From: Diploschistes diacapsis
Lineage: Eukaryota
DNA: 32,220 nucleotides
Reading direction: 5' to 3'
Assembly (NCBI GenBank): GCA_023645945.1
Contig: JALAIB010000108.1
Location: forward strand, 1-32,220
Shown here: positions 1-32,220 of the stretch, piece after piece
How the letters are laid out: every line of letters begins with the position of its first letter
Position numbering within the stretch: position 1 is the stretch's first letter
The notes under the pieces: model-generated
Databases searched by the model: none
Told to the model about the DNA's origin: nothing
Seen by the model: only the letters and a program-made list of their open reading frames with translations
Program-made: the position numbers and the translations under genes

Positions 1-28
1 CGCTGACGGTGCTTTGGTTTTCCTGCAG

Positions 29-8264: not shown

Positions 8265-10081
8265 TCATATCGCCCGCCTCTTTAGCATGACAGTGGCGGT
8301 CTTGTCCGGCAAGTTCTGCGTCTCGAACTCCATGCTCAGCGGCCTACTCTTTCTCGGCGGGAAATTGAAGTCATACTCAAGCAGCAAGTGCACCAGTATC
8401 ATCTTGATCTCCGCGTCGGCGAACCACCGACCGGGGCAGGCATGGCTGCCGTAGCCCCATGACATGTTCGACAGGTTCGCGGCAACGTACTGAGTCTGTC
8501 CGCCACCAAGCGGATTGGCTTGCCGCATATCATGGAAACGGAAGCCCTTGAACTCCTCCGGGTCGGGGTAGTTCTCGGGATCCAAACCAATGGCGTGTGC
8601 AGGGACACCGATCTGGGTGTGAGCCGGAAGGACTTGGCCGTCTTTCAGGACGAGATCCTGGGGTATGACGCGCTCGTAGGTGACTGGGATTCAATTAGCG
8701 GCAGCCAACGTGTTGGGTGTGCTGATGACGAACTAAGCAGCAGCGGGTTGAAGCGTTGACTCTCGCGCATGAAGCTGTCCAGCTTCGACATTTTCAAGAA
8801 CGCCTTCTTGGTCAAAGCTCCCTCTTCTTCCAACGCTTTGGTGATCTCTTCCCGTAGAGGCTCAACGTATTGGGGCATAGCGCAGAGATCATACAATATG
8901 TGAGTGATGGCAACGGCGCTGGTATGAATCGCAGCGAACGCCACGTGCAAATTTATATGCGACAGCGTCTTGTTGGTCCGATGTTCCCTGTTATCCAGCA
9001 TCCATTGGATCAGATCTGCGTTCTTGGTGCCCTTCTCTTGAGGATCCGAGCGCGCCGATAGCACGGGGGAGATGAGGGAATCTGCCAAGGCAAAATGCTT
9101 GAAGATCTTCTTTACTTCTGGGATGAAGAACTTGACCAGCTGACGTGAATATGCAGGGAAATCTTTCAGTCGTTGAGCGGCTAGAAAGCTGTCTCCGGTG
9201 AAGTCAATCATCGTATCGGTCCATGGTTCGTGCCGGCTGAGATGGGTACCTCCGAACATGCGACTAGATGCTCGAGCTACAGTTCTTGTGAGGATGTCCG
9301 CTGCATTGAGTTCTGTCCAATCTGCTTTCTCCGTCAGCAATCGGACCGTACTCAGGTCGCCATCAGCATACCATCGCACGACGGAATCAAATCTACGAAC
9401 GAAGCCTTTATCTCGTCGTCGACTTCGGGTAAGATAGCCGCTAGCCAATATTAGTGATAAGATGCTTTGGCTGTTGTCTACCTTGGGAACATACCGAGAT
9501 GTTGATTCAGCTGATTCTTGATGATTCGGGGATGGAGCGTCTGTTCTGTTCCAATAGTGGTGACTTGGCCTTCAAACATCTAGACAGCACATCAGCAATG
9601 GTCCTTCTGGAAATAAGTATCTTTGGTTCCTCACTTCGACAAAAGTTGCAGGGAAATCTGCTTGCTCAGCGACTGCGTTCTTCAATTCTTCCACATATTT
9701 TGGTGGAACCATGAGTCGTTCACCCCTGGCTGTAGGTACGTAAAACAGCCCTCCCTTATACTTCAAATTCATTAGTTGATTTCAAAGCTTAAGATCACTA
9801 ATTCCTACTTTGCGATAGCCTTCCAGAAGGATATTCTTAGATCCATGTCTGAACTTGACTCTCAGGTCTTTTATATCGACGCCTTCCTCTTCGAGCCCAG
9901 CAACAGGGACATCTTTCAACAATCTTTGATGTTTAGGCCGAGGGAGAAGTACAAAGAGTGCCACAACAGCCAAGGCAAGTATTGCCAGGAACTTTGGAGC
10001 GCACAGCAAAGTCAGCGGCACTATAGGCACAAGATCTTGCCAAACAAGAGGCTTTGAGGAGTCGTTTCCTTCCATGGCCAT
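8265..10081 (-). CDS. Cytochrome P450 monooxygenase A (ent-kaurene-oxidase-like terpenoid P450 group)
   Basis: Six exons, five GT-AG introns (after GYRK, FVE, QHL, SCD, PLLL) join in frame. N-terminal TM helix, I-helix AFAAIHTS, ExxR (ESQR), FKGFRF, heme motif WGYGSHACPGR. Confidence 0.93.
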
Positions 10082-10602
10082 ACTGATGGGTACGCGGATA
10101 GATTGAGTGGTGCAAGGCTTATCAAAGTTAGCGTTTGTGGCTTGTAGGTTTTACAGTGAACGGATCGAAAGAATCTTTGTCTCATATCAGCACAGTGCTG
10201 AGATATGAGAATAAGTGTCTTGTCCTAGCACCGGCCATCCCAGTATAAATACCCAGAAGGGCACAGACACTCGGCTATCCAAGCTTTGGCCATGAACTGC
10301 TTTCAAGTCGGAGCTGCGGAGCCATGACCATGCGGCTGCTTCTCTATCCTACGTAGCGCTGATGCATCTTCAGGGTCCATGACAGTCCTTCACCTTCCTA
10401 CCGATGCTAGGAGTTTATGTATGCACTTCCTACGGGGTCCCTCCATTCGGGAAGCACCCGATTTTTACGCAGAAGGGAGCTTGCTAACGAGAATTGATAC
10501 TAAACACAGCTAGCACTGCTGTGTGCTGCCCAATTATTTCCGTGCGCAAAAATTCTGTTCGAGTATCTACTAACAATCGTGTTCGGAAACGATCGTCACT
10601 TT

Positions 10603-11625
10603 CTAGTACACGAATTTTTCACCTACAAGCTTCTCGCTCAGAGCCCAGAGCTTGTCCTGGTTTTCCACGCCCACCGCATGCGGCAACAGCGGTGTTTCAA
10701 AGATGGCTCCGTGGTTCAGGAACGCTCCGGAATGGTCCTTCAGATCGGGGTCCAGCGCACCGTACAAGGTGGTAGACGCACCGGCTGCAAGAGATTTGGG
10801 TGCAATGTTCGGCATTGGCGCGCCGTTCAGCGCCGCGGTGGCGATTCGGTGGCCCTCTGCGAACATTTCCTTGGTGATGTTCGCCATCAGTTTGCTCTCG
10901 AAGATCAACCCGGGATTGAGCGTGAAAGAGTACACTCCCTTGGCCTTGAGCTTGTCCGCTAGGGCATGGGTGAAGAGAATGTTGGCGGTCTTGGACTGGG
11001 CATACGCGTACCAAGCGTTATAGTCCTTGCCGCCGTCGAAGTTGGGGTCGTCGAAGTGAACGCCGCCGGACATGTAACCCAGGCTCGAGACGTTGATGAT
11101 TCTCGAGTCAGGTCCAGCAGCAATGATCTCGTCCATGAGAAGGTTTGTGAGGAGGAAATGGCCGATGTGGTTAGAGGCAAACTGTAGCTCGATTCCGTCC
11201 TTGGATTCCTCGAAGTTAGGAAGTGCCATGATACCGGCATTATTGATCAGAATGTCAAGCTTGTTGGTCAAGGTCTTGACCTCAGCGGCAGCTTTGCGGA
11301 CCGAAGCGTTGCTTGCAAGGTCGAGCTCGACGAACTTTGTGGGGACACCTGGGCTCTCCTTGGAGATCTGGTCGATGACTGGCTGGATCTTGCTCAGGGT
11401 GCGGCCCGCTAGAATGATCAAGGCGGGTTTCGCGACGGCGATGAAAATGGCCGTCTGGGCTCCAACGCCGCTCTCACTTGGTCCAGTGATCAGAACTGTG
11501 TTCTCACGATTAGTAATGTCCAGCAACGAGCATCAAAGAGGCTGCTTACTGGTCTTTCCGGGCACGCGATCCGCATATGCCTTGACCACCTCATCGCCAG
11601 GAGTATCATTTGAGAATGTCGGCAT
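10603..11625 (-). CDS. Short-chain dehydrogenase/reductase 1 (retinol dehydrogenase/WWOX-like, ~322 aa)
   Basis: Exons 11625-11550 and 11495-10603. TGPSESGVG Rossmann variant, INNAG, FASNHIGHF, NVSS and YAQSK catalytic motif. Confidence 0.93.
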
Positions 11626-12130
11626 GATGAGTCTTTTTTCGACAGAAATGCTTTTGTGAGCAATGGCTTCGCACTGTGAATGTGGTATTGAGACTATTAT
11701 TTAAATGAACGGGGAGATGCTGTATTTGTTGAAAGCTATATGCAGGCTAGCTATATGCTACACTGAGAGCTTCGATGGGAGACACCTTTGTTATTTCCTA
11801 TCCTTCCATTGTTGCAGCCTGACCTCATGTAGCACGGCATTTGTCATCCAGCAGGAGGCTGTCTCATTCACCCCGTAAAGGATGATCATGAGTTGACAAT
11901 CCGACCAGACCCTAGGACGCTGATTGATCGCACTGTCAGGTATGCGGCACACATTTTTGAGGTCTTGTCCAGGATGTTGTCGGCCCTTTCTCATTCTGTG
12001 CGGCAGCCGACTATTACCAGACTTTCCCTAATCCATCCAACCTTCCGAAGAATGCATAATGCATAATTCACAATGCATAATTTTATTCAAAAGATACGTG
12101 ACTCAAGTTATGCACTTGTGCAATTCATTA

Positions 12131-12339
12131 ACGTCTTTCCCCAGGAAACGGAACACCCCATGAAGCGGAACACTACATTATAATGTAATTACGCTAGATA
12201 GTTTTAAGCGAGCTTTTGAGCCCCACAACCACACATAAAATTATTTGTATGAAACTAAATCTGTTTTCAACTACGTTATACGAAGGTGCAGGGATTGTGT
12301 TCCGCTTCGTGGGGTATTCCGTTTCCTGGGGAAAGACGT
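12131..12339. mobile_element. 209-bp MITE, Tc1/mariner-pogo (Fot1-like) type
   Basis: 43-bp TIRs 12131-12173 (ACGTCTTTCCCCAGGAAACGGAACACCCCATGAAGCGGAACAC) and 12297-12339, 41/43 identical, both differences transitions. TA on both flanks (12129-30, 12340-41), ACGT termini, internal direct repeat GAARCGGAACAC in the TIR, AT-rich non-coding core. Confidence 0.92.
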
Positions 12340-12398
12340 TAGCGCTACTGCGGTTTTTTACCAAGCACTACGTGCTTTTTGGTTAATATCCTTACAAC

Positions 12399-14027
12399 CT
12401 ATTCTCCCCTCAACAGGGGATCAGACAGCAACCGCTTCATCACTTTGGGATTCATCACCATTGCGACAATGACTCCGTTATGGCTCCAGTGCTCTCTCCT
12501 TTTTTCTCCCAGATCGTCGTTCTCGCGAACGGTCTCGGGATTCGGCGGCGCTTCCATGATCTTGATGACTCCATCCATCGTGTTAGGCAGCAGGAAATGC
12601 ACGTGTCTGGGTGTGCACCCTAGGACGAATTCGAGCGTCGACGCTCCAAGCCTGAGCCAAGTGGTCACTGTAGTGTGTCGCTGGCCGATGAAGAACTGCC
12701 AGAGCCTCTGCGCAGCTGCCTCGTAGGTGAAGTCGTGCAGCACCGCTCCGAGACTCTTCTGGTCGAACCTCGTGGTCGTCGCTCTGATCGCCTTTGCTAT
12801 GTCCCCGAGTGAAGCATTCATGATCTTGCTTGGCCGCATTGCAGTATGGACGTGCATTGTAGGCGAGCCCAAGAAGTTTGCAGGTAAGGGAGGGGATAGC
12901 CGAGGGCGGATACCTAGGACAATGTTCAGATAGATATCTTTCGCGTCATCCGGTTGCCGCGCTGCGCTGAGACGCTGCCAAAGGTGTGCTAATAATGCAT
13001 CTAGGCGACTGATGGGGCTTGTCGACGTTTCGGATGCTTTCTTCCAAATGCTGCGTATCTCCTTGCCGTTGAAATGGATATGGATATTGGACGCTGGACT
13101 TAGAAAGTCGCATTCTTCCCACGGTACAGGTCCTGCGGGCGACAATTCGGCTCTGTCCGTGTTCAATCCCGGAGGTTTCGTGGCATCCATCAAACTTGCG
13201 AAGAACGGCGGTCGAGAATTGGTCTCAAGCCATCGATCATAGCGATGGATAGGCATAGATCGCGACGTCTGCAGAAGGCTCTGGTCAGGCTCTAGCTTGT
13301 TCAGATCTCCGCCAGTTGCCTTTTCGATCATTGATGGATCAAAGACATGTTCCAGAGCTGGCAAAGGGGTCTCCTGCGCCATTGCGCGATTCGTTTCCGC
13401 CCAGCCCATCATGAAAGACATCATCGACCCTGCATCGGACAGAGCATGATGGACCTTGAGCGCCACGCCGACTCCACCGCAAGCGAACGTCGTTAGTTGA
13501 ACGGACGAAGAAGGTAGTCCTGTGAAACTACGTCCATCATGTCCCACGATTGGAGTGGTAGAAAAGAACTCTTCTTGCGGAAACCCTGCGGCATCCCAGT
13601 GTCTTGAACCCTGAGCACGTTGCGACGGCGATGGTACGAACTCCTCGAGGCGTCGAGCACTTTCCGCTACGATGACTTCGAAACCGGGATCGGCCTTCGT
13701 GCCATGCTTCACCAGCAGCCGTCCAAAGCGCTTCCGCGGGTCGCTGCCATTTTCAAACGGAGCCAGCTGCAACTGGCCAGCCCAGTGTGGGTATGCATTG
13801 ATTATCCGCTGGAGCGATTCTAGTAGGTGGGATGCCAGAAGTGCTTTGCGTTGCGGTACAAGTCTCGGCTTGTCGTAGATCCACAAGCCGTTGGCAGGCG
13901 GGAAAGGGGCGGCAATGGAGTCGAGTATAGAGAGCTTCGTGGAGATGGCTTCTGCTGGAACTTGTTGAGGTCTGAAACGAGCGTGTAGAAAAGTATGCAG
14001 AAAATGTCGAGGAACGGAGGCAGCCAT
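12399..14027 (-). CDS. CoA-dependent acyltransferase (transferase family, HxxxD), candidate O-acetyltransferase
   Basis: Intronless 542-aa ORF with YPHWAGQL, VQLTTFACGGVGVALKVHHALSDAG (HxxxD), SRLDALLAHLW and RPRLSPPLPANFLGSP segments typical of fungal transferase-family enzymes. Confidence 0.9.
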   Translation of the reverse strand: MAASVPRHFLHTFLHARFRPQQVPAEAISTKLSILDSIAAPFPPANGLWIYDKPRLVPQRKALLASHLLESLQRIINAYPHWAGQLQLAPFENGSDPRKRFGRLLVKHGTKADPGFEVIVAESARRLEEFVPSPSQRAQGSRHWDAAGFPQEEFFSTTPIVGHDGRSFTGLPSSSVQLTTFACGGVGVALKVHHALSDAGSMMSFMMGWAETNRAMAQETPLPALEHVFDPSMIEKATGGDLNKLEPDQSLLQTSRSMPIHRYDRWLETNSRPPFFASLMDATKPPGLNTDRAELSPAGPVPWEECDFLSPASNIHIHFNGKEIRSIWKKASETSTSPISRLDALLAHLWQRLSAARQPDDAKDIYLNIVLGIRPRLSPPLPANFLGSPTMHVHTAMRPSKIMNASLGDIAKAIRATTTRFDQKSLGAVLHDFTYEAAAQRLWQFFIGQRHTTVTTWLRLGASTLEFVLGCTPRHVHFLLPNTMDGVIKIMEAPPNPETVRENDDLGEKRREHWSHNGVIVAMVMNPKVMKRLLSDPLLRGE

Positions 14028-14456
14028 GAATCCCTGGTCTCGAGAAGCTCATAGATCGGCATCATGTGTGAAGGGGAAATGCAGGTCTTGCGGCTAAAAG
14101 CAGATAGAAAGAAGGGTCCAGCATGCGAGATTGACAGAGAGACCATCGCGAGCTCTCCGGTCCCTGACCCGGCTGTGAAGACCAATGCTACGTAGCATCG
14201 CGTGCGGCTTCAACTTGCTATCGCAGGATTCGCACTTAAGCCTAATGCGGGAGCCCCCGACCAGATTTGTGCCCGATCCGGAATCGTGGCGCCAGAGGCA
14301 CGTATGTTCCCATTAGGCCAAATCTAGCTGCAACCGAGTCAAAGATGGGCTTCCATATCATCAGTGAAACCATGCTTCTCAATGATTTGAAAGCTGCGAG
14401 GATATCGATTGATCGCGGACACGCGAGAGAGTCGTAATCACGAGGCGATGACCAAG

Positions 14457-16294
14457 ATGGCATTTTTAGAAAGCTTGGTGGAACAGAAATACCCGAACGT
14501 TGTTGTGACCATCTCTGCAGTTGTAAGTATTTTCCTCTGGTAGCTGACCAAAGCAATTGACGAAGCAAGGTGCTTCTGATAGGTCTGAGCAAAGGTGCTT
14601 ATAACTATTTCTTCCATCCCCTTGCCAAGTTTCCTGGTCCGAGAGCGGCGGCAATAAGCAATGCGAGTAATTGAACCCAGAAAGTGGCAGCTGTGTTAAT
14701 GCTAGAAATAGTTTTCGCATTGTTACTGGTTCCTTGGAGGGCGCCAGCCGCACAAAATTCTCGAACTGCACAGGAAATATGGTTGGTTCATCACTCACGA
14801 GAAACATGCGCCTTACATGAAGTAGGTCCGGTTGTTCGAACAGGGCCTAACGAACTTTCCTTCAACTCCGCGCAGTCATGGCGGGATATCTACGACTTTC
14901 GACAAGGCCACAAGACCTTTGTGAAGAGTGATTTCTACGAAGGAGGCAGCTTTGCAGACCAATGTGGTTCCATCGTGAGCGAAAGAGACCCGGTCGCTCA
15001 CGGGAAGATGCGAAGGGATCTATCTCATGCCTTTTCCCAGAAATCATTGTCGGAGCAGGAGTTCATCATTGCTGGGGTGACTGATCGCTTCATTGAGAAG
15101 CTCCAAGAGCAAGATAGCCAGGAAATCGATGCCGTGAAATGGTTCACGATGCTCACGTTTGATATCATTGGAGATTTGGCGTTTGGGGAGACCTTCAATG
15201 GCATTGAGACAGGTACAAATTTGCGTGTGGATTTTTGCGCTGCTCACACTGGCTAAGGTAGTTATCATCCGTGGATCGTTCGAATCGAAGGCGCCATGAT
15301 GCAAGGTGCACTTGCCGATTGTTTCAAACGCTTTGCCACTATTGGAAAGCTTGTCATGCTGCTGCTTCCCGGCAAGGTAATGGCAATTATCGAAGACACT
15401 AAGATTAATGAGAGATACTCGATTGATTTGGTGAAGAAGTGGGCAAACGTCTTGGTGACCTGCGAGAAAGCGCTAATAAATCACAGGAGGATCAATAAGA
15501 AGACCGATCGCAAGGATTTCCTGACTCGTATCCTGGAGCATAGGGACGAGAACAACGTCTCAGATATCCAGATCGCAGCACATGCCTCGGATTTTGTGCT
15601 CGCTGGAAGTGAGACGACGGCGACAGCGCTCTCGTGTATAACGTATTACCTGCTTCATACGCCCCATGCCTTGAAAGCTTTGACCGACGAGATCGATGGG
15701 GCATTTAAGTCGTACGGTGAAATAAACGCTATGTCTACTAGCTCACTCAAATACCTTCAAGCCGTATGCCTAGAGGGGATGCGAATATATTCGCCACTTC
15801 CCTTTGCATTGCCAAGAGTGGTTCCTGCAGAGGGAGATACAGTGGATGGGCACTTCTTGCCCGCTGGGGTCAGTGAGAATTCCAAGTCTTAAAGGAGAGA
15901 CTGACAATCGTATGGTGAAGACTGTCGTATCAACGAATCCGGTGGCTGCATCACTGGACGCCCGAAACTTCAAAGACCCTCTTTCTTTCAAGCCAGAACG
16001 ATGGCTAGGCGACAACAAAACAGATAAACTAGATGCTTCTCAGCCATTCTCATTGGGTCCTAGAGGATGTCTTGGAAGAAGGTGCGTGCCCATTGAATTT
16101 GGACCAAGAACACTACCACTGACGACGGCAGTCTCGGATGGATGGAGTTACGGACAGTGCTTGCCAAGCTACATTTCAGGAATTCTATCGAACTAGTCAG
16201 CACTGACTTGGACTGGCAAGACGATTCGAAAATGCATACTCTTTGGCAAAAGCCAAGCTTGAAAATCAAAGTATCGTCGAGACATAAGAATTGA
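14457..16294 (+). CDS. Cytochrome P450 monooxygenase B (Tri11/CYP65-like group)
   Basis: Eight exons; intron 1 14523-14569, intron 2 GC-AG 14663-14711, intron 3 14782-14825, then four GT-AG introns. YNYFFHPLAKFPGP, GPNELSF, FDIIGDLAFGE, AGSETT, EGMR, PERW, FSLGPRGCLGR; TGA at 16292-16294. An in-frame ATG also exists at 14448. Confidence 0.93.
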
Positions 16295-16693
16295 TGGTGA
16301 TAGGAAGAACAAGATACTCGAATTTGGAGGACTTGAGATGGGGAGATGATGCTTGAATCGTCAGGCGCGGCGTCAACATAGATTCAACCTTGCTTCAATA
16401 TCCATATTCGCCTATCCCTATCGTTGGTCACACGGTAATTCGTCCTCATATTGGTGGGTTGATCCTGATTCTCAGCTATGAGATGTGTCACGATCGGAAC
16501 CGCCAAAGGTCATAGACGTAGTTATGCCTTTTCCATACCGTAATGCGATATACACAACAGCTTCGGCGACTGTAGATACCCAAAGTCCGTAAATGGACAG
16601 TTCCGAGATTTCGGAGCATGTTGGATTATATATACAAATGTGATGAATCTGTCAGCAGCTTCTCCTAGACCACACCTCTGCATTGCTACCGCT

Positions 16694-17709
16694 ATGGCCG
16701 CACTCACGATCGACAGCACGAAGTTCGCGGACTTGACCGGCAAGGTCGCACTAATAACTGGTATTTGACCCATTGAACTAGTAGCCTAGCTGACATCACC
16801 CAGGCGGATCGTCTGGTATTGGATATGCTGCCGCTTTGATTCTCGCAGGACAGGGAGCCAAAGTCCACATTCTGGATCTTGGACCACCCGAATCGGTGCC
16901 AGAGAACCTTTCTTCGCGAATCGAGTACCACCAGTGCGATATCACATCGTGGCCCTTGTTGAGAGATATCTTCCAGCGCCTCCCCAGGCTGGATCTTCTC
17001 TTTGCAAACGCCGGCGTTTCTGAGACAGTGAACTCTTTCGAAGACACCTTTGACGAAGCGGGACTACTGCAAGAGCCTTCGTATGGTGTCTTGGGAGTGA
17101 ACCTGAGATGCGTATTGAACGTGGTCAAGCTTGGCTGGAGCCACATGCGGAAGAACAAGATCGCAGGCAGCATTGTTCTGACGATCAGCGCAACGGCTTA
17201 TGCGCCAGAACAGTCGCTGCCTGTCTATAGTGCTGCAAAGCTGGCGGTATGCTTCCAGTGGCGAAAAAAATTGCTCAACAACTAACCGGAAATGTACACA
17301 GCTCGTTGGGCTTGTGCGAAGTCTCAGGTCCACCATTACCCAAGATAACATCACAATCAATGGCGTCGCCCCTGCTGCGACAATCACTAAACTGCTGCCG
17401 GGAAACCTGGCAGCGCCGATCATGGCAGCTGGGCTTCCCGTCAGCTCAGCACATTTTGTAGCCCTCGCCTTGGTGTGGTCTGCTGTCGGTACGGAGACGC
17501 GCAAGGTGGAAGTGTATGGCAGGGAAGACGATGCGAATCTTGTCAAAGCAGGCCGTTGGAATGGCAGAGTGATTTTGACTCTTGGCGACACATATACAGA
17601 GCTGGAAGAGCCAATAGCAAATCTTCGGCCAGAGTGGTTTGGAAAGGAAAATCTGCGGCTAACGAGAATGCAGCAAGCCGCGACCGATGCACGTTCATTA
17701 TTGCTTTGA
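16694..17709 (+). CDS. Short-chain dehydrogenase/reductase 2 (15-hydroxyprostaglandin-DH-like, ~305 aa)
   Basis: Exons 16694-16760, 16804-17246, 17302-17709. TGGSSGIG, FANAG, catalytic YSAAK, INGVAP. Confidence 0.92.
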
Positions 17710-17824
17710 CGCACTGGCCCAATTTGGAACAATTGGTTGAAAGCATCTACTTTGCGGTCACGTGGGGCTTTACACGCTATTCTCCATCGAAAAGAAACTA
17801 TGTTATGAGATCTAGATCGAAAAA

Positions 17825-19472: not shown

Positions 19473-19677
19473 GGCCTAGTCCACATGCACTTTATAGGAC
19501 ACAGGAGCTATGTGAAAGAACTGGCCATCATTGCACCGCTGTAGGAGAACCGCAGTCACAACATTGTAGGTGCAGCTTACACGACACTAAGTTGTTGCTT
19601 ACAGTGTTAACTTCCTGCTGCGGAAAGGCTCCGAGATAATAGGGCTGTCTAAGCGGAATCGGGGCTGTCCAAAATCG

Positions 19678-19744
19678 CCGAATTGGGAATTTCCAATTCG
19701 GGGATTTCCAATTCGGGACTTTCCGAGTCGGGGTTTGTCGAAAT
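19678..19744. repeat. 15-bp-period tandem repeat with overlapping palindrome in the MFS promoter
   Basis: Units GGGAATTTCCAATTC / GGGGATTTCCAATTC / GGGACTTTCCGAGTC / degenerate GGGGTTTGTCGAAAT (19685-19744); palindrome CCGAATTGG-N6-CCAATTCGG at 19678-19701. Confidence 0.7.
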
Positions 19745-19794
19745 ACAGAATTTGGCCGACAGGTAATCATTTTCATGCTGTTGTGGCTGTATTA

Positions 19795-20452
19795 GGGAGG
19801 TTTAGCACCCCTGTAAATGCACCGCGTAAGTCCTATCGTAGTTAGCTCGTGTCTCGGCGCCGAGCGCTGCTTACCTATTTGGGAAGCATCTCCGAACGTC
19901 GCCTACGCTGCATAAGTTCTAATATAAATAAGCGTCGAGAAAAGCCTTACGGCCCTCCACCGACGCATACATTTTTAATCTCTAAAATAGACTATTCGGC
20001 GTCTTTAAAGGCCGTCGGGGACGTGTCTGTCTCTATAAAACATAAAAAATAAACAACGACGTCTACCCCTACGGTCCCAGGCCCTAAATTTTACGATTTA
20101 AATAATAATAAACGTTGGTATTAAATATTGTAACGTCTATTGATTATCTTTGTATCTTTTTACCCACCTTTTCTTCTCCATTCCTCCTAACGCCTCGCAC
20201 TTTGTTATTAAATATAATAAAAGGACGAAAGTAATAATGGCCCCACGGCGCCTTAAAATAAGCCTCTGAAAACGTAAAATGGCCATATTTCAAACCTTTT
20301 TAATTATATTCAAAAGAGATAAAATTACTAGAAACATTGCATTTTAACATACTATTTAATTTAAACCAATCTATTACCAAGACCCCAAAAAAAGGCGCTA
20401 GCTACATCTGGACTTACGCAGCGAGCGCATTGACAGGGTTGCTAAACCTCTC
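19795..20452. mobile_element. 658-bp non-autonomous TIR DNA-transposon relic, RIP-eroded
   Basis: Left end GGGAGGTTTAGCACCCCTGTAAATGCACCGCGTAAGTCCTATCGTAGTTAGC (19795-19846) aligns with the reverse complement of 20397-20452 (GAGAGGTTTAGCAACCCTGTCAATGCGCTCGCTGCGTAAGTCCAGATGTAGCTAGC). TA on both flanks; interior AT- and TpA-rich with no credible ORF. Confidence 0.82.
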
Positions 20453-21177
20453 TATTGGCTGCTACCGGGTGAAACGCAACCCCGCTTGGTATTTGGGTGC
20501 GCCCTCAGCTATTATTACTATCAGTTCTTATTGTTAATCCTTTGCTAGGGTAGCCTACGGCTACATGTAGCCCTCGTGGTTCATACTTGGATTAACGACC
20601 AAAAATACTCCATGATCTCATGCATGAATCGGCAAAAAGCCATGTGCAAGATCTGACATGAGCCCACGAGGACACAAGCTTCGGTCCACAGTACGCCCAT
20701 GCGCCCATGTTGACCCTGGCCTTGGATTAGGTCCTCAAGCCAGCTTCCTAAGAGGGCATGCCGTGCTACATGGATTCCAGAAGCCCAGCTGTCCACCGTG
20801 AGACGGTCATTCGTCCTTGTCGAGAATCTACTAGGAGTTACGTTCCTTCTCATGGTAGTAAAATTTCGATTGTCTAGCCGCAAGAGGCTTGATTACTTTG
20901 CTATACGATGGCTGTGGTCTGTCTCGTCTGGCCACATAAGAGTCATAACGAGATGGCCTTGTGCCGTCAGGCAACGCATCAACGTGGCAGTGCGGCTCAG
21001 AGGGATAGAAGAGCTGTGTTTCACGCTATCTATCGTCTATTTCGCGAGGGTGGCGGCTGAGGACTGTGGGAGATCTATATAGGCTCGGTCTGTTGAGATT
21101 TTCTTCATGTTATCGTCGCTCTTTCGCTTATTTTCTTTGCATCTGAAGTCTGATTTGAATTGCCCTTGTTATTGGAA

Positions 21178-23029
21178 ATGGTGTCATTTTCTGTACAGCC
21201 GGCTGCGGCCATCATAGTCACTGTGCTTTTAGCATTCGCTGAAGGGTCGCTCATAAGTTTTCCTCGATCTCAGTCCAGCGGTTGCCAAGCACTCTCCAAG
21301 CAATTTCCTTCGTTGGTATCTTTTCCCAATAGCACCATCTACGAGACAGAGAATGCTGGCGAGTGGAATACGAGCGACGGCGAAGATGCGTGCTAACAGC
21401 TTTGCAGAATTCTGGTCCGAGACTACTATACTGTCTCCCTTTTGCATTTTCACACCGAACACATCACAAGACATCGCCTCCGCTGTGAAGGTTCTCGTTC
21501 AAACCAACACCAAGTTTGCTGTTCGGGGTGGAGGGCACATGCCTATTCCAGGGGCTGCCTCGACCAATGATGGGATCCTGATAGCAATGGACAACATCTC
21601 GACACTTGAGGTTGCTCAAGTTGGATCTCAAGCCGTGGCCAAAATTGGAACTGGCTCACGATGGATCAATGTCTACGAGCAGTTGGCATCTCAGAAACTT
21701 ACAGTGATCGGAGGCCGATATGCGTCAGTCCTTTGCTGTCCTGTTGTCTATCTTTACTGAAATAAATCAGACCGGTTGGAGTTGGCGGATACATCCTAGG
21801 CGGAGGAGTGTCTTACTATCTCTCAGCCAAAGGATGGGGTGCCAATCATGTCGTGAACTTCGAGATTGTCGACGCCGCGGGCGATATTCTCCAGGTTAAC
21901 GCCACATCGTATCCCGATCTTTTCTGGTCTCTCAAAGGTGGATCAAACAATTTCGGAATCGCCACACGATACGACCTTGAAACATTTCCCCTAATTGATA
22001 TCTACGGAGGATTCCTGACTTCGAACGAGACATATGTCAATGATGTAGTTCAGGGTAAGCTCACACAATCCGGAGCTCTCGTTCATCCGTAAAGAGATCA
22101 TCTAGGGTATTAGCCTTGAATTCCTAAGACCCATACTCCTACACCAATATCTAGGCAAACAGAGCTAATCTGATGGGCAGCTGTTGCTGACTATATCACA
22201 CCCTCTACTGGAGGAAACTTCGACCTAGCCGCTGCCGTAGCTCCAAATCTCGAGTTTACGACCGATACAAGAGTCCTCACAGCAGTCACCAGTCTCTTCT
22301 ATAACCAGAGCGTCGACGCATCTCCCAAAGCATTTGAGAACTTTACAGCTGTTCCAGCGATACCAGAGCTCTCTGGGACATCAAAACAAAGTCTGCTCAG
22401 TTTTCTGAATGCTACTGTTGCAACCGGAGATAGAAATTCCAAGTAAGGCCCTCATCCAAGCATAGTATTGAGAGACTGATCCTCGCGTTATAGCAAGCTC
22501 TTTGGTGCAACGTCACTTAAAGGCACTCCTCAGGCTGTGAAACTGGCTGCGCAGATTTTCTTGGACGAGATCAAGATCATCAAGAATGTGACAGGCGGTA
22601 TCGTGACAATTGGTTTCCAAATGATTGCCGAGTCTTCTCTTCAAGCAGCTCTTGCCGCCGGTGGGGATGCTATAGCTCTAGATCCCGCTAATGGTGCTGT
22701 CATGAGTGAGCTGTCATCCATACTCGCCAAGTCCAAAATTATGCTAACAGCCTCTAGCTCTCCTGGTTAGCAGCGAATATGCACAAGCATCGGACACGCA
22801 GTATCTCCAGGGCTGGTTAACTGGAGTTCTACAAAAGATCGAGAGGCAAGCGAAAGCCGCTGGCATCTATTATCCCTTCATCTACCTGAATGATTCGGGA
22901 GAGGGAGAACCTGTCCTGCGACTGTACGGGAATGGCAGGAGTTTCGCGAGAATGAAGGCCATAGCGGCGAAACACGACCCCAAGCGTGTATTCCAGAAGC
23001 TTCTTGCAGGAGCGTTCAAGTTATCGTAA
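21178..23029 (+). CDS. Secreted FAD-linked oxidase (BBE/vanillyl-alcohol-oxidase family)
   Basis: Six exons (intron 1 GC-AG 21359-21407). Signal-peptide-like N-terminus (MVSFSVQPAAAIIVTVLLAFAEG), FAVRGGGH flavinylation motif, VGVGGYILGGG, DLFWSLKGGSNNFGIATR, C-terminal YLND...HDPKRVFQ; many N-x-S/T sequons; TAA 23027-23029. Confidence 0.92.
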
Positions 23030-23668
23030 GGTCAGAATGGGGCTAGTGGCATTAGAATTTCTCGGATCATGCTAGAGAGCTGCAGATTGAGCCTTCGGGC
23101 ATTGTTATAATTATATACTTGTATACTACAACTGAATTGAGACGTCAGTATCTTCTATTTCCTTCCTCTGGGTCCTCCAGATAGCCACATCTGTGACCAA
23201 TCACCAGTCCTTGTAAATGCCTAATTGACTGTGATTTCGGGGCAACCTGCATTTGTGTATTTCGAAGAAGCCCCCGTTTGGCGCTAAGCCTGGTTCGTTA
23301 ATTAGCCGAACCCCTTTTCATCTACCAAGTTGAGCAAATATCGTTACTATGCAACCCTTTCTCAGCTTCCCATCCGGATCCACTCGATGATCGAGCCTCA
23401 AAGATCCAGTATTGATTCGGCGAGCATCTCCGACAGGTTCGATATGATCTTACGGACCCGGATCGATCCAAGCTGCCAGTCTCCGCGATCCGAGTAAGCA
23501 AAGGGGTCTCTCGTAGTTGAGCTTGACTAGTAAAGGTACCCCGTATGATGGCATTGTGTCTCAGTACATACTCTACCATCTTGCGCTTCGTTATCCTTCT
23601 CTTACAGTTTTGGCGCGATTCGTTTGTATCAGCTATCAAAATCAAATCCAGTACGTGTTTTGCCTACA

Positions 23669-24717
23669 ATGCTATCTCACGATGGTGACGCCGCTCCCCC
23701 ACCTCCCGCCTCGAACGGCGACACCGAAGGCCATCCGCCAACCCCAACCGGCGACACCAACGAGCACCTCCCCGACTCCTCCGGCTTCGCCTTCACGCCC
23801 ACCCTGCGCACCGGGCCCACAACCACCACGTCCCCGGCCAACAACCCGCTCGGGCCCTCCTTCGCCGTCTGCATCATCGGCGCTTCTCGCGGCATTGGCG
23901 CGGCCATCGCCCTGGCATACGCCTGCGCCGGCGCCGCGACGCTGATCCTGACCGCAACAACCCGCGCCGGTCTCGCTTCCATCACAGACGAAATCCGCTC
24001 CGTCGCGCCCGCCGCCCGCGTCCTCGCCGTCGCCTGCGACGTCTCCCAGGACGCGAACGTGCACGCGCTCGCGCAGGCGATCTGCACGCAAGTCCCCGGC
24101 GCGCGCCTCGACGCGGTTGTGGTCAATGCGGCGCACTACGGCGAGCTGGTCACTGACATCACCGGGGGAAGCCCCGCCGAGTTCCAGAAGTGCATGGATA
24201 TCAACGCGACCGGCGTGTACCTGGCCGCGCACCACCTGGTGCCCCTACTCATGGCGACGCAAGACGGCGCACGTACGTTCCTTGGCGTCAGCAGCCTCGC
24301 AGCCTGGTTGACGGGCGGCCTCGTCGCGCATTTGGCTGTATGTGTTAGTAAGCTGGCGCAGGTTAGAGTTATCGAGCACCTCGCCGAGCAGTACGGGGAC
24401 AAGGGGATATGCGCTCTGAGCGTGCACCCGGGATGCGTCAAGACGGATATGGCCAAGGCGGCGCCGCCGGAGTTTGAAAAGTGTGAGTCGAGCGCGGATC
24501 GCTGTCGTTGGACGTGTTCGGAGGAGGCTGACGTGCGGCAGACTTGGTTGACGAGCCTGGGCTGTGTGGAGCCATGTGTGTTTGGATAACGAAGCACCGT
24601 TTGACTTGGTTGAACGGCCGCTTTGTTTCGGCTACGTGGGATGCTGATGAGATCTTGGAGAGGAAGGAAGCTATTATCAAGAAGGATATGCTGAAAGCGC
24701 GTCTCATTGTTTCGTAG
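23669..24717 (+). CDS. Short-chain dehydrogenase/reductase 3 (~329 aa), atypical: VxxxK instead of YxxxK
   Basis: Exons 23669-24482 and 24542-24717. IGASRGIG, CDVS, VVVNAA, GVSSLAA, AVCVSKLAQ, SVHPGCVKT, WLNGRFVSATWD. Start codon less certain. Confidence 0.88.
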
Positions 24718-24909
24718 ATAGTCTCGATATATAGTTTAACGTTGGAGCAGGACCTAGTCTAGGTCTATAGATCACGCAAGCTCAAACCCATGCCCTTTGA
24801 AGAGACTACAATTGAGTCCATACAATAACTAGTACACCCCGGCTTTCTCCACCTGCAGGGGATATCGCACAGCGCGGAGAAATACGCAGATAGAGTGCTT
24901 ATTAAAGTC

Positions 24910-26827
24910 TCAAAGCCCAATCCTTTTCGTAAACCTTGCGTTCAGATGGGGCTTCCACCACTGTACATGTACATGGCTCGAGCCTTCGAAATCCATTTGC
25001 TCATCGATCAGAGCAATATCGTAAGTGAAGAGTAATTTTGCTAGTATAGAAGACATCTCCATGAACGCAAAGCTGAGACGCGCCACTGTTAGACCAAGTC
25101 GGCATAGGGACTGGAACGCGAAACTCACTTTCTACCGAGACACCCACGTGGGCCTAGAGAAAATGGCTGGCTAGCCTCCTTGACATCTGTGCTTTCGAGA
25201 TCGAGCCATCGTTCAGGGGTAAAGCTGTACGGCTTCTCGAAATTTTGTGGGTCGTGTGTTACGGTCCAGGCGCTTGTATACACTTCAGTCTATGGAGGGT
25301 CAGATCAAAGCTGATTTGAGGGAGGTATAGGAATAATGACCCCGGCTGGTACCCAGAACCCGTCGACATAGGCCCCTGGAGATGTCCTTGGGAAACCTTG
25401 AGATCCGGGAGGAAAGATGCGCAGACCCTCATTAATTACGGCCTGAAGGTAAGGCAGTTGTAGAGCCGCGGACGCATCAATCTCTTCATAGCTTTGAAAC
25501 CGATCACGAATCTCTGCTTTCAGCTTCTGCAAAGCGCCGGGTGTTTTGCAAAGATAGTATGTCGTCGCCGTCAAGAAAGTGGCAACTGTCTCTCCGCCAG
25601 CGATACTGCGAAAACATGAGGCTGGCTTCATAAGATGCTAACGTAGTCATACTTACACCAGTGTCGAACTATGCGCTGTCATCTCCTCTCTAGAGATTTC
25701 CCCATCTTCTACCTTTGCAGCGACGTTGGACAAGAAGTCCCTTCGGCTGGTTCCGCTATTCAGACGCCTGCGCACACAATTGTCAGTCTCTAAAGCCAAT
25801 ACTGACACCGTGGGAAAGCTCACGCTGCCACCTTGGCTCTACTAAGATTTGAGTGTTTGTCTCGAACGTCTGAGAGGAACTTTGGAAGAACCAGTTGGCC
25901 TAGTCGGCGGACAAAGGGATACCTTCGCAAGTTATCTATTACTGTAATCGCCCAGATATGTTTCGAAAGCATTTCCTGCCAGAAATGTGGATGCCCTGAA
26001 ATCATTCAGTCTGACTCTGGCACCCTTAGGTGAGTAGCTGTCTTTCTTTACTCACCGCTTTCTATGGAGCCGAATGACTCGCCAAATGCCATTTCTCCCA
26101 GAAGGTCAAAGGCAACCATTTCATACCAGTCGGTCATGTTCAAGCCTCCCTTTGAGTCGCCAAGCTGGCCAACCCGTGCAATGAATCTATCGATAACCTC
26201 CTGTATGATACTTTCTTGCTCGTACAATGCCTTTGCTGAAAACATTCCAGCCAATGATCGCTTCATACGATTGTGCTCCATAGGGTTTCTCGTACTGCCA
26301 ATGCATAAGCTGTCAAAACCAGTTCCGTAAATATCGTAAAATTCGCTCTTGATGAACGGTTGTTTGCCAGGCCATGGTCCATAGATATCCTTCCAAGATT
26401 TGACAGAAGCGAATGACAACTCGTTAGGCGAAACGCGAAAGACGGTTCCTACAATCACTCAATTCTGCGCTATAAGTGGCACAGTTCCATGCCCATTACC
26501 ATATTTTCGATGCTGTTTCTCGATTTCTCTGTGAAACCGACCAGCTGAAGAATGCCTAATCCTCCAAAACTACCGCATTGTGTAAGTGAAAGCAATTCGA
26601 TGTCTGCAGATATGAGCCCACCAACGACCACCTTGCAAGCCGTGGCCCAGGGAAGCCCGCAAGGGGGTGGAACCAGCCATTGTACACCACATAGGTCAAG
26701 ACATACAACGATATCTGCAGAAAGCTTAGCGAAGTGCTTGTCGAAGTCTCATAGGCCTTACAAGTCCAAGGACCATATATGTCCATGATCCTTTGGAGCT
26801 GAGTAATCCTTGCAGTACGTTGGCCAT
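24910..26827 (-). CDS. Cytochrome P450 monooxygenase C (Tri11/CYP65-like group, paralog of P450 B)
   Basis: Nine exons starting MANVLQGLLSSKGSWTYMVLGL|ISLYVLTYVVYNGWFHPLAGFPGP. SPNELSF, FDLLGEMAFGE, AGGETV, EGLR, PERW, FSLGPRGCLGR. Confidence 0.93.
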
Positions 26828-27411
26828 TTTGCTGAGCCCCGTACCTTGCGAGCTGCACAAGCAGATTTCTCTGTGCAAAGAGATTATACAAGTGTCTTCA
26901 GCGCCAAGAATGGATCGGATGGATCTCTCTAGAGGAAGAGGAATCTAGGAGTGAATCGCGAAGCGTCGAGTGCGTCTCTGCAACCCGCATTGTTTGTTGA
27001 TCTAGAATCTTTTTGGGAACTCGTGTATTTGGTTATCGGGCATTACCAGGCATTGAGATTGTGCTTATTTTTAGTTGGTTGATTTCTCTTCATCATCCTC
27101 TCAGAACAGCATGGCATGGCATGCATCGGGAGCAATGCAGATTGGTATCGATTGCGAGGTAAACAAGTGCCTGACAGCATCGGGGGGTAGCTTGATTGGG
27201 AACCGTGCGAGCGCCCGCTTCGGCTTCTTCAACTAGTTGCTCTTTATTTTTCCTTCCGAAAACGGGTAAGAGCCGCAAGCCCGTGTAAAGGGTGAGAGTT
27301 AATACAATAGACACCTGAACGAGAAAAGAAGTATTATTCGTAAGTCTCTCGTGTAATATTCACTATCCCCATTGCTCTCTATTATCAGCATCAGGGTCCC
27401 ATTCTACCAAA

Positions 27412-28733
27412 ATGCCTTCTACAATTTTCGAACAACAGCCCCTTTCCAGCAACGGCGTAGGGAACGACCTGATTGTGGAATTGAAGAACCAGTTCAAGAG
27501 CGAACTCAAGTTCGAGCTATACCAGGAGCTGAGAACCGCGTTGGATTCCACAAACGGCAACACGAATGGCTCGATCAATGGTACGGCTAGTGGCACCACC
27601 AATGGCACCACCAATGACACAACCAACGGGACGACCAATGGACGCCCCAGCAGTAACGGGAACGCATCTCCAAGAGTTCCAGAAAGTATATTCACGCCCA
27701 TCTACCATCCAATCATGGAAGATGCCATCCGGGACGTCGACGGCTACTTTCTTCAACAGTGGCACTTTCCAGACATGAAGTCGCGAAAGAAGTTCGTGGC
27801 GGCCGGCTTTTCTAGAGTCACATGCCTTTACTTTCCCAAGGCCCTCAACGAGCGCATCAGAATGGCCTGCTCGCTGCTTACCATTCTTTTCCTCATTGAT
27901 GGTAAGAAAAGAAGCTTCCCTAATCCACACGTGAAGCTGTTGCTGATGCTCTGCACAAGATCAACTTGAAGACATGTCTCTCCAGGATGGCGAGGCCTAC
28001 AACAACAGCCTCATGCCTCTGTGTAGAGGAACCCAGAAGCCGAACCGCAGCGTGCCGGTGCAGTGGATGATGTACGACATCTGGGAAGACATGCGTGCCT
28101 GCGACAAGGAGCTCGCAGAACAGGTCCTGGAGCCCGTCTTCCTATTCATGCGTGCGCAGACGTCCAAGGAAAGACTCACGGTGCATGGTCTCGGGCGCTA
28201 CTTGAAGTACCGCCAGGGAGACGTTGGCCAAGCGTAAGTCTGCTGCGTTCATCTGATGCCGTCTCGATGCCATCATCGGTATTTCAATGTTTAGATTGCT
28301 GACAGTTTGAAGGCTATTGTCCGCATTGATGAAGTTTTCCATGGGCCTGTCTCTCTCCGACGCTGATCTAGCATCAGTCAGCCTGGTAGAGAAGAACTGT
28401 GGCCGTCACATTTCCATTGTGAACGACATCTACAGCTACGAGAAGGAACTATACACGTCCCAAACAGCACACAAGGAAGGGGGCTACCTGTGCTCTGCCG
28501 TGCCAATCTTTGCCGAAGAGACAGACTTGAGCATCGCTGCTGCAAAGCGTGGCCTCTGGACGCTGGTGCGCGAGTGGGAATACATCCACAACGAGCTGGT
28601 TCGGGAGCGAATCAATGCACCAGAGGGCTGCAGCGAGACGGTGAAGGCATACATGAATGGACTGGAATACCACATGTCGGGCAACGAGCTTTGGTCCAAA
28701 ACAACCAAGCGGTATCAGGTTGTTGGACCATGA
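27412..28733 (+). CDS. ari1: Class I sesquiterpene cyclase, aristolochene synthase family (~394 aa)
   Basis: Exons 27412-27901, 27960-28233, 28313-28733. KKFVAAGFSRVTCLYFPKA, Asp-rich LIDDQLE, EPVFLFMRAQT, NSE triad NDIYSYEKE, GLEYHMSGNELWS and RY pair, all closely matching Aspergillus terreus / Penicillium roqueforti aristolochene synthases as recalled. Product specificity not proven. Confidence 0.93.
27550..27642 (+). repeat. Coding 12-bp degenerate tandem repeat (TNGx)n in the cyclase N-terminus
   Basis: Encodes TNGNTNGSINGTASGTTNGTTNDTTNGTTNG; e.g. GGCACCACCAAT repeated. Confidence 0.8.
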
Positions 28734-29021
28734 GAGCACGGAGCGGGAGAGGTCACCAGAGCAGAGATGGCTGCAGGGGTTGTAGGAACAGCGATTTCTT
28801 TGATCTGTCAGTCAGATATCTTTTCTGGCAGGGACATAAGCCTACACGGGCACAGTCGGGGTTGTTTTGGTCCGACTCGTCAACGGGCCGGGCCGGTTTG
28901 GCCATACATGCCTGTGATTGAGATGTGATTGAGCCGGCCTTATCTGGATACAACATGTCCAAGCTCCCCACGCTTTCTCTATGCAAATTCTATGCGAATC
29001 CAAATAGTCATTAGTCATATA

Positions 29022-30693
29022 TCATTGTCGGTCAAAGATCCTTCCAGGCCGTGTTCCGAATAATGCCAGTTGCTCTTTAATCCTCGCAGTGGTCTTCTCT
29101 ACGAGCAATAGATGCGTATCCCATTTGTGTTGGCTTAAAATATTGCGGACATGGTGCAAAAACCTTAGCAAGAGCGAGAGTTGCAACCTGGTCACGCCTC
29201 CGAACACCGCAGGCTCTTCTTCTACATCAAATTCATAGCCGTGAAGGTTCATTGGACCCGTCCCGGTGTCCAAGTTCTCTCCATGCTGGTACTGTCTAGG
29301 AGACAATGAGACGCTGTACTGTCGCTCAGGAAATTGGTGCGAGGACGCCCTGGCAGTCTGATGCTCAGTGTGAATATCGTTATGTTGCTCGTTGAACTGC
29401 TCCACGAGAAGCTCTAGTACTCTTTCGTACGCATCCACGAGGTTCTTCGAAACTACAACGAGCAGCATGACAAAGCTTGAGGAGCTGATGCAGCGCTTGC
29501 AGCCCAACAATTGTCTACAGCGCGCCAGCGTATGTTTACTGAGACGCAGTATGCAAGAGATGCCAGGCCGCAGGATGGACACGTTGTGGATGCTGATGGC
29601 TTCGAGCATTGATAGAGCTGATTTGACGCATTGGCACGATTCGCCGGATAAGAAGGTGTAGTCGGTCTGCCGCTCATTACCCGAAGAGAAAGTATCTGGA
29701 GCCATATCCCGAGTATATGCAATTCGACCCACTGTGGCGAGCGAGCTAGATTGAAAGTTTTGAGAATTCTGGGTTCGAGCTGTTTTGGCGGGAGGTACCA
29801 GAGCCGTGTTGGCTGAATATAGAAATGACAGATCAGTATCAGATACTTGTGTGGAGCCTGAAAAGCGATTGGGAGAATCTACATTTTCTTGGAATTAGCC
29901 ACCGATCTTGCCTAGAAAGCAGTACAATGAAAGGAATCAATATAGCATTGGCGACTTACTTCTCTGGCGGTGGGAATCCGTGTTCGCACTATTACTATCA
30001 CCACTCGAAGTTGGTGCTGTTGCATTAACAAGGTTGCCCAATCGATGCGAGCCAAAGTTCTCATTGGCATACGGGTCTTCCCAAATGTCCACTCCCAAGC
30101 CATTTTCGATGTTGAACATGTTGATATCTGTGTCAAACAATGTCTCGCCTGGAAAGCTTGTATTCTCTTCCACCTCAAAGCGGTTTGCCGCGACTGGAGC
30201 ATGGCTTATCACTCCTTCCATACCTACAGACGATATACCTGGGAGTTCTTGGTTTGCAGGACGTTGCTCTGTCTCAGATGTCTCAGGCTGTGCACCAAGT
30301 CTTGGAGCAGAAGTGTTCACGGGCGTCGCTGGAGTTGTTGCGCTCTTCCCACTCTCTTTACCACGGTTGTTGATAGCTCCCAACCTGGATATGGGACTGA
30401 AGGCCCCTGGCTTTTTGGATTTTACAGCATGATTGCTATTGTTGCGTGGTTCTTTCTCGGCCAGAGCTGCATAATGACAGTGGGAGCCTCTGGAAAGACA
30501 TCGATCACAGCCACTTGCTTCACCAGTACATTTCAGCTGAAGACGATTAGTAAATGGCAAGGCTTCGAGCACACTCAGCAACGTAAAATACCTTCTTTGC
30601 ACGACAATTGACACAAGCGAGATGGAATATGGGTCTGACTTCTACATTGTCAAATGAGTTCTTCTCCGGATTGATCTGTAAGGTCGCGTACAT
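29022..30693 (-). CDS. Zn(II)2Cys6 pathway-specific transcription factor (~489 aa)
   Basis: Exons 30693-30592, 30536-29960, 29812-29022 join in frame. Binuclear cluster ACVNCRAKK|LKCTGEASGCDRCLSRGSHCHY; C-terminal CQC...CRQLLGCKRC region of the kind seen in AflR-like cluster regulators. Confidence 0.92.
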
Positions 30694-32108: not shown

Positions 32109-32220
32109 TTCATTCCTTCATAGGCGGAATCGTTTAGCATATTGTTACGATCCGAGGTAACTAGGTAGTAGTTACTCGGTACGTCATAGCTAACCGGGGC
32201 GTTCCCCGACCATCCCTTCT

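Follow-up and report, generated by a model that had tools for sequence, protein, structure and literature searches.

What does a compact run of secondary-metabolism genes in a lichen-derived contig make? The question is raised by a 32,220-nucleotide stretch of DNA from Diploschistes diacapsis (contig JALAIB010000108.1 of assembly GCA_023645945.1, hereafter the window), in which positions 8265 to 30693 hold an unbroken run of 11 such genes. The DNA is fungal, with a GC content of about 0.5 over the window and many short GT-AG introns. A preliminary description had seen in this run a self-contained terpene cluster around a cyclase of the aristolochene synthase family, and the gene content supports that view. 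We think it quite probable that these genes form a biosynthetic cluster whose product is an oxidised, possibly acylated eremophilane sesquiterpenoid; we take the fungus to be lichen-associated, probably the mycobiont.

Protein families were assigned by a Pfam scan of 134 stop-to-stop open reading frames (ORFs) of at least 78 aa and of 100 further ORFs from gaps and flanks. Gene models were built with a dynamic-programming gene finder of our own, which uses a length bonus and was guided by tblastn to homologues; they draw on sequence and homology only, with no RNA. All 11 coding sequences start with ATG, end with a stop codon and contain no internal stops. They are interrupted by 35 introns, every one of them GT-AG and between 37 and 126 nt long. 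The outer limits of the run are the stop codon of a cytochrome P450 gene (8265) and the ATG of a Zn2Cys6 transcription factor gene (30693). Between them lie the genes for three P450s (P450a to P450c), three short-chain dehydrogenases/reductases (SDRa to SDRc), an FAD-linked oxidase, an acyltransferase, an MFS transporter and the cyclase. Pfam returned exactly the families named beforehand and the models reproduced the earlier coordinates, so that the description of 11 contiguous, intact genes stands.

The cyclase gene (27412-28733, plus strand; 394 aa, three exons) carries a Pfam Terpene_syn_C_2 domain at 28311-28730 (+). Each exon was compared with all solved structures in the Protein Data Bank, and the only strong matches were the aristolochene synthases of Aspergillus terreus and Penicillium roqueforti. 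Exon 1 scored 115 bits against the former and 74 against the latter (E 3e-32 and 1e-19), exon 2 108 and 112 bits (best E 9e-32), and exon 3 157 and 174 bits (best E 1.5e-50); the next family remained below 40 bits (E 6e-9). The suggestion that the cyclase is nearer to the A. terreus enzyme thus holds for exon 1 only, exons 2 and 3 favouring that of P. roqueforti. A motif scan located the metal motif DDQLE at residue 163. It did not register VNDIYSYEKE, which the printed alignment shows to be identical to the A. terreus enzyme; RVTCLYFPKAL, LFLID, EPVFLFMRAQT, VNDIYSYEKELYTS and SGNELWS are identical or nearly identical between the two proteins in the alignments. The residues studied in both enzymes, namely the metal ligands and the aromatic side chains that mould the eudesmane cation, presumably lie in these conserved stretches. 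Similarity over the full catalytic domain and the DDxxE and NDxxSxxxE motifs identify the predicted protein as a member of the aristolochene synthase family. A search of 1.84 billion cluster representatives with exon 3 yielded just 13 relatives with E below 1e-30, the best of them 63% identical; as judged from these matches, the family is small and the cyclase no close copy of any representative. Its N-terminal 80 or so residues form a Thr/Asn/Gly-rich extension beyond the extent of the A. terreus enzyme, encoded by a 12-nt tandem repeat (7.8 copies, 27548-27641).

Conservation of the neighbourhood was assessed on metagenome contigs scanned with an alignment of cyclase relatives. The scan gave 80 loci whose cyclase homologues reach no more than 60% identity, 40 of these loci spanning at least 10 kilobases (kb). 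Twelve proteins, the 11 of the cluster and a phytase encoded to its left, were compared with these loci, counting homologues of at least 40% identity and at least 150 bits within 10 kb. The numbers of independent occurrences are lower than the counts because many loci are near-duplicates from sibling assemblies (e.g., L033, L034, L037 and L038). Homologues of P450b lie beside cyclase homologues at 21 of the 80 loci and those of P450c at 18 (identity 50-63%). SDRb has counterparts at 11 loci, its 54-61% homologues adjoining P450b-like genes and cyclases; the FAD oxidase follows with 10 (40-49%), SDRc with 8, P450a with 6 (42-45%) and SDRa with 2. By this measure, all seven predicted redox genes are recurrent companions of the cyclase family.

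Neighbour pairs are retained as well. A script counted the FAD oxidase and SDRc homologues together at 8 of the loci, P450b with SDRb at 6 and P450a with SDRa at 2. Genes for a cyclase, a P450a-like and an SDRa-like protein (54%) are consecutive at L006, as are those for a cyclase and P450c-like (57%), SDRb-like (58%) and P450b-like (55%) proteins at L031, L062 and L063. An SDR gene, a P450a-like gene (43%) and a Tri101-like PF02458 transferase gene stand side by side at L014 (13709-18783) and L067 (3562-8219); the composition of this module is like that of P450a, SDRa and the acyltransferase here, but the transferase subfamily differs. Mis-fused gene models provide further examples: a P450b-like part directly adjoins an SDRb-like part in those of five genomes. 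The NCBI model from Paraphaeosphaeria sporulosa joins SDRa, P450b, SDRb and P450a in that order, that of Monosporascus contains two P450c-like parts plus P450b and SDRb, and those of Penicillium expansum, Arachnomyces and Brigantiaea join P450b to SDRb. In Bathelium mastoideum, P450a-like and P450b-like genes have locus tags four apart, and contigs of the same size. From gene order, the predicted cluster is made up of three oxidase-SDR modules (P450b-SDRb, P450a-SDRa and FAD oxidase-SDRc) to which P450c is added.

The first of these modules bears on the core of the pathway. Cox and co-workers describe one P450 and one SDR, shared by the sporogen, hypoxylan, eremoxylarin and PR-toxin clusters, that together make a C-8 ketone (PMC10686045); the two genes are adjacent, by their names, in two Xylariales clusters (HrL7/HrL8 and XhL7/XhL6). 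Minami and co-workers classify 371 fungal eremophilane clusters by key enzymes into six groups (A, B, C, BC, D and X), with a core of cyclase (Emp2), C-8 P450 (Emp9) and SDR (Emp4) leading to 7-epi-neopetasone (PMC13736955). In the same scheme the key enzymes are Emp6 (P450), Emp7 (isomerase) and Emp8 (acetyltransferase) for group A, the P450s Emp13 and Emp15 for group B, and the polyketide synthase (PKS) Emp12 for group C. Of the core trio, the cyclase is present here, and the P450b-SDRb pair is the one that recurs beside cyclase homologues and in fused models. P450b (14448-16294, +; 495 aa, eight exons; Pfam p450 domain 14675-16193, +) has its best named match, at 71%, in a P450 of Periconia macrospinosa and is 58% identical to a Lignoscripta protein with the transferred name "Cytochrome P450 monooxygenase orf11". 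SDRb (16643-17709, +; 322 aa, three exons; adh_short domain 16794-17282, +) contains TGGSSGIG and YSAAK. P450b is probably the common C-8 hydroxylase, judging from its neighbourhood and from the "orf11" name as placed by our own mapping of gene numbers, and SDRb, from its neighbourhood, is probably the common C-8 dehydrogenase.

P450c (24910-26786, minus strand; 499 aa, eight exons; p450 domain 25308-26458, -) is transcribed divergently from the cyclase gene and belongs to the same P450 family as P450b, both having the haem-binding sequence FSLGPRGCLG. P450a (8265-10081, -; 519 aa, six exons; p450 domain 8268-9571, -) is of a different family, a type labelled "ent-kaurene oxidase" in NCBI and JGI records, and its haem-binding motif reads WGYGSHACPG. 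Its best named matches are in lichen-forming fungi: Physcia stellaris (68%), Haloplaca sp. (64%) and Lobaria (51%). Taken together, the best named matches scatter across Lecanoromycetes, Lichinomycetes and Dothideomycetes and place the fungus no more closely than lichen-associated. A 28-nt upstream first exon of P450a was discarded as spurious and the ATG at 10081 taken as the start. The adjacent SDRa gene (10603-11625, -; 322 aa, two exons; adh_short domain 10606-11532, -, 91.6 bits) encodes NNAG and YAQSK, and the protein aligns at 44% with the first 277 aa of a fused model (P0159). The classical catalytic Tyr-x3-Lys of SDRs is thus kept in SDRa and SDRb; it is not in SDRc.

The FAD-linked oxidase (21178-23029, +; 512 aa, six exons; FAD_binding_4 domain 21257-22089, +) has a GGGH motif at residue 105 and a hydrophobic N-terminus. 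It had been described as a BBE-type enzyme, but Pfam did not detect the BBE domain PF08031 in any ORF, nor in the C-terminal exons at E values up to 0.1, and the predicted protein is more aptly classed as a VAO/PCMH-type FAD-linked oxidase. Its proposed secretion gains partial support. The hydrophobic N-terminal exon is conserved 5' of FAD oxidase homologues at other loci, but its inclusion depends on a 37-nt intron (21363-21399, GTGGAA...CTAACAG, with a CTAAC branch site), the sole in-frame join available to it; in the final model the start was adjusted by hand. SDRc (23669-24717, +; 329 aa, two exons; adh_short domain 23549-24586, +) is atypical, and the ESM Atlas returned generic SDR clusters only. 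As predicted, it is a member of an SDR-like subfamily that has no catalytic tyrosine and travels with the FAD oxidase.

The acyltransferase (12399-14027, -; 542 aa, single exon) matches the Pfam Transferase family PF02458 (12402-14048, -) with 94 bits, the cut-off being 22.7. H194 and D198 of its HALSD motif (194-198) are conserved in 35 of the 36 sequences aligned. The Transferase domain and the catalytic HxxxD make the predicted protein a BAHD/PF02458 member. Its closest relatives are metagenome proteins at 83, 67, 56 and 48% identity; the best named ones, from bdelloid rotifers and Polyporales, reach only 37-39%, and there is no Penicillium or Xylaria protein among its 35 matches. A profile of its relatives found transferases beside cyclase homologues at 4 of the 80 loci. 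These Tri101-like enzymes are 23-24% identical to the protein here and carry a TRI-like_N domain that Pfam does not find in it. We read the acyltransferase as a separate recruitment into the cluster, from another subfamily than the Tri101-like enzymes. Its 67% relative and an 83% relative of P450a are both on contigs of 26,757 bases; probably the pairing of the two genes persists, on one shared contig, in a related fungus. The best named matches of the acyltransferase (37-39%), P450a (64-68%) and P450b (71%) support the earlier view of a distinct cluster in another lineage, and show no near-identity to a characterised one; with named proteins so distant, the locus cannot be a known cluster.

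A pathway can be proposed in which skeleton, order of steps, sites of oxidation, acyl group and co-regulation are all predicted from these assignments. The cyclase would convert farnesyl diphosphate to aristolochene. P450b would hydroxylate C-8 and SDRb would then oxidise the alcohol, giving the enone 7-epi-neopetasone, a step common to all known eremophilane clusters. P450c and P450a would introduce further oxygen, the candidate sites being ring A, the C6-C7 bond and the side chain. The FAD oxidase might turn a primary or allylic alcohol into an aldehyde or acid, like HrL4 and Prx3, and SDRa might adjust a ketone or alcohol; SDRc, having no catalytic tyrosine, may be inactive or act otherwise. 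The HxxxD acyltransferase would esterify a ring hydroxyl, the MFS pump would export the product, and the Zn2Cys6 factor would turn the genes on.

How far does this scheme resemble known systems? The parallel drawn in the preliminary description was with the PR-toxin cluster of P. roqueforti and P. chrysogenum (prx1-11, ORF1-11). The likeness is one of enzyme types, and these do correspond (PMC10144355): aristolochene synthase, P450s, SDRs, acyltransferase and transcription factor are alike, an FAD-type oxidase again lies near the cyclase, and P. chrysogenum has an MFS gene too. The parallel fails at the small beta-barrel gene (ORF7), which was not found here. The cluster further differs in having three P450s instead of four, many introns, an acyltransferase not close to a named Penicillium protein, a cyclase only moderately similar, and a lichen metagenome as its source. 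In the hypoxylan A cluster of Hypoxylon rickii (hrTc-hrL8), as described in PMC10686045, the common P450 adjoins the common SDR in the manner of P450b and SDRb. There, the FAD dehydrogenase HrL4 oxidises the side chain and the extra SDR HrL5 appeared inactive; adjacent by number, the two compare with the FAD oxidase and the atypical SDRc. That cluster has no acyltransferase and includes an aromatase-type P450, of which there is no evidence here, the comparison being one of gene content. The sporogen AO-1/deoxyphomenone clusters (aoTc-aoL4 of A. oryzae, DPH, and isa of Isaria) likewise contain a cyclase, an SDR, three P450s and an MFS gene and follow the same logic of C-8 hydroxylation and oxidation (PMC13647387, PMC11980549); the cluster here adds two SDRs, the FAD oxidase, the acyltransferase and the transcription factor. 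The group C eremoxylarin cluster of Xylaria hypoxylon also has an HXXXD PF02458 acyltransferase, esterifying a ring hydroxyl (PMC13736955). The acyl chain is supplied there by a PKS, of which the 32-kb window has none, and Xylaria is not represented among the 35 acyltransferase matches. Finally, the peribysin cluster of Periconia macrospinosa (pma) likewise groups three P450s and three reductase genes around its cyclase (PMC13736955). An acyltransferase and an FAD oxidase, both present here, go unmentioned in the text of that paper on pma. The P. macrospinosa P450 that is the best named match of P450b may or may not belong to pma.

Group C, the eremoxylarin type, is excluded within the window because no PKS (Emp12) was found there: in agreement with the preliminary description, Pfam scans detected no PKS domain in any ORF of the window, a PKS past its ends being still possible. 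A group B cluster, of the petasol/sporogen type, is a real if tentative candidate. The three P450s would then act as C-8 hydroxylase, C6-C7 desaturase or epoxidase and C-3 hydroxylase, and the products would be relatives of petasol or sporogen AO-1, here acylated or oxidised in the side chain. The DPH and isa clusters, too, combine three P450s with an MFS gene and one or more SDRs (PMC11980549, PMC13647387). Cultures of Sarcographa tricosa and Graphis mycobionts have yielded petasol, sporogen AO-1 and other eremophilanes (PMC12113121). The frequency of P450c-like genes beside cyclases is compatible with group B, and the consecutive cyclase, P450c-like, SDRb-like and P450b-like genes at three loci point the same way. 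Yet the FAD oxidase, the two further SDRs and the acyltransferase exceed the minimal group B set, and P450a is of a family unlike that of P450b and P450c. A PR-toxin-like group A cluster, as in the preliminary description, is a possibility that we regard as somewhat doubtful; by enzyme type, P450a, a P450 of another family, and the PF02458 transferase are candidates for its P450 and acetyltransferase. P450a would oxidise ring A (C-1 to C-3), the acyltransferase would esterify the C-3 hydroxyl, and a P450 and the FAD oxidase would yield a side-chain aldehyde. The enzyme types match Table 3 of PMC10144355, and the FAD oxidase is close to the cyclase just as prx3 adjoins ari1. P450a, SDRa and the acyltransferase are contiguous, a trio of P450a-like, SDR and PF02458 genes recurring at L014 and L067. 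Against group A stand the lack of an ORF7-type beta-barrel gene or small Emp7 (isomerase) candidate in any gap of the window, the three P450s where P. roqueforti has four, and the acyltransferase itself, with its low identity to the transferases of other cyclase loci, no TRI-like_N domain and no Penicillium protein among its matches.

Several observations weigh against the broader reading, that of an oxidised and possibly acylated eremophilane. At none of the 80 loci do the acyltransferase, the MFS transporter or the transcription factor have a homologue of at least 40% identity. The C-8 assignment of P450b and SDRb draws on gene neighbourhood plus a single name transferred to a Lignoscripta protein ("orf11"), and two papers differ in their numbering of the common PR-toxin P450: it is PrL9 in PMC10686045, which by our own mapping would be ORF11, and Emp9 in PMC13736955. 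The FAD oxidase retains its conserved N-terminal exon only with an unusually short intron of 37 nt. In SDRc the catalytic tyrosine is missing: the sequence around residue 224 reads VCVSK, and HCVSK in orthologues that lie beside FAD oxidases. In the 3' half of the acyltransferase gene (12402-13183), 10 of the 15 listed differences from a second copy of the cluster, found in run X2 and described below, change the residue; such differences are near the neutral expectation and may reflect weak constraint or fast evolution. The last two points, together with two repeat elements inserted into spacers of the copy in the window, suggest that the cluster could be partly decaying or silent, with SDRc and the acyltransferase non-functional and the pathway ending at a simpler product. 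We hold this to be unlikely, since all 11 frames are intact, the HxxxD motif is conserved, the listed insertions and deletions relative to X2 all fall in spacers or introns, and the repeats leave coding sequence untouched. Less likely still is that the cyclase makes another skeleton, such as valencene or another eudesmane-derived olefin, and the product is not strictly an eremophilane. Valencene-derived fungal metabolites do lie outside the classification scheme (PMC13736955). The cyclase is only moderately identical to both characterised enzymes, and sequence cannot give the product. However, both reference enzymes make aristolochene, the motif stretches listed above are conserved, and the tailoring genes recur at loci of the same cyclase family. 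We take the A. terreus and P. roqueforti enzymes to be about as distant from each other as each is from the cyclase here.

To our knowledge, nearly all that is known of lichen secondary metabolism concerns polyketides. Full-text searches on aristolochene or eremophilanes in lichen-forming fungi turned up no assignment of such a cluster, although the supplement of PMC13736955 may list some; a survey of terpene clusters in lichens placed none of them with a characterised one (PMC11457338). It is conceivable, though we would not count on it, that the present locus is the first eremophilane-assigned gene cluster of a lichen-forming fungus and that, with a lineage-specific acyltransferase and a tyrosine-less SDR, it makes an undescribed O-acylated eremophilane. 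Were this so, it would match, at the gene level, the petasol- and sporogen-type compounds of cultured mycobionts, and would contain an acyltransferase subfamily not seen in other eremophilane clusters. The kind of cluster is thoroughly known, and the understanding of how such pathways work is unchanged. Heterologous expression of so complete, compact and apparently intact a cluster is a direct way of tying such compounds to genes in organisms that are very difficult to culture. To the prediction of eremophilane structures from enzymes it contributes, on a small scale, three conserved oxidase-SDR pairs, the unusual SDRc and an acyltransferase recruited separately.

The second copy came to light in sequencing runs. 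Sampled words of 20700-30690 are all present in X1, a run labelled lichen metagenome and probably the source of the DNA, and 48% of them in X2, a run of a named organism. Contigs from X2 are colinear with 11000-30903 of the window and show, over the compared interval (11000-30999), 348 differences in about 19,000 bases, or about 98.2% identity; apart from the listed insertions and deletions there are 27 further ones. Two stretches of the window are missing from the X2 contigs. One lies in the spacer between SDRa and the acyltransferase (12131-12353; depth 5300 in X1 and 13000 in X2), the other in that between the MFS and FAD oxidase genes (19790-20452; depth 330-550), the flanks having a depth of 95 in X1 and 29 in X2. 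Depth over both exceeds that of the flanks 3- to 450-fold in X1 and in X2, as expected of multi-copy repeat insertions, and one X1 contig links 12341 to 20456 on opposite strands. Probably the two are copies of a small dispersed repeat in opposite orientations, similar to miniature inverted-repeat transposable elements.

On the left, the cluster is bordered by a gene for a phytase, or histidine-acid phosphatase (6314-8009, -; Pfam His_Phos_2 6317-7709), as the preliminary description had it. This border stands because, unlike the seven redox genes, the phytase has a homologue of at least 40% identity at none of the 80 cyclase loci. The "repeat debris" reported on the right is better described as AT-rich (GC 0.41), gene-free DNA in which a handful of short inverted repeats and a single 23-nt tandem repeat occur; the clearly repetitive DNA sits within the cluster, in the two intergenic stretches just described. 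No further Pfam family appeared in the 100 ORFs from gaps and flanks, and the spacers 19480-21170 and 30700-32220 and the stretch 1-6300 contain no convincing gene with the exception of one long ORF. This is a 350-codon open frame outside the cluster (1174-2223, -), whose protein is basic and then Ser/Asn/Gly-rich and of low complexity; it matched no Pfam family and had no usable match in the ESM Atlas.

The remaining two genes of the cluster encode the transporter and the regulator. The MFS transporter (17825-19472, -; 531 aa, two exons) shows nine peaks in a crude hydropathy count and matches MFS_1 (17828-19135, -) with 156.7 bits, the TRI12 match being weaker. The transcription factor (29022-30693, -; 511 aa, three exons) has an AflR-like middle region (domain at 29025-29894, -) and, at residue 27, the sequence CVNCRAKKLKCTGEASGCDRCLSRGSHC, which follows the pattern CX2CX6CX6CX2CX6C. 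Its Pfam matches are weak (Zn_clus, E 0.048; AflR, 22 bits against a cut-off of 24), in the case of Zn_clus because an intron splits the Zn2Cys6 motif. AflR-type TCGN5CGA sites number 13, where 7.45 +/- 2.9 would be expected, and 5 of 100 shuffles reach 13; most of them fall in coding sequence, and a shared promoter motif is therefore unsupported. At 19681-19732, some 210-260 bp 5' of the MFS start and shortly ahead of the inserted repeat, a 15-nt unit (AATTCGGGAATTTCC) is repeated 3.5 times; it may have a regulatory role or belong to that repeat.

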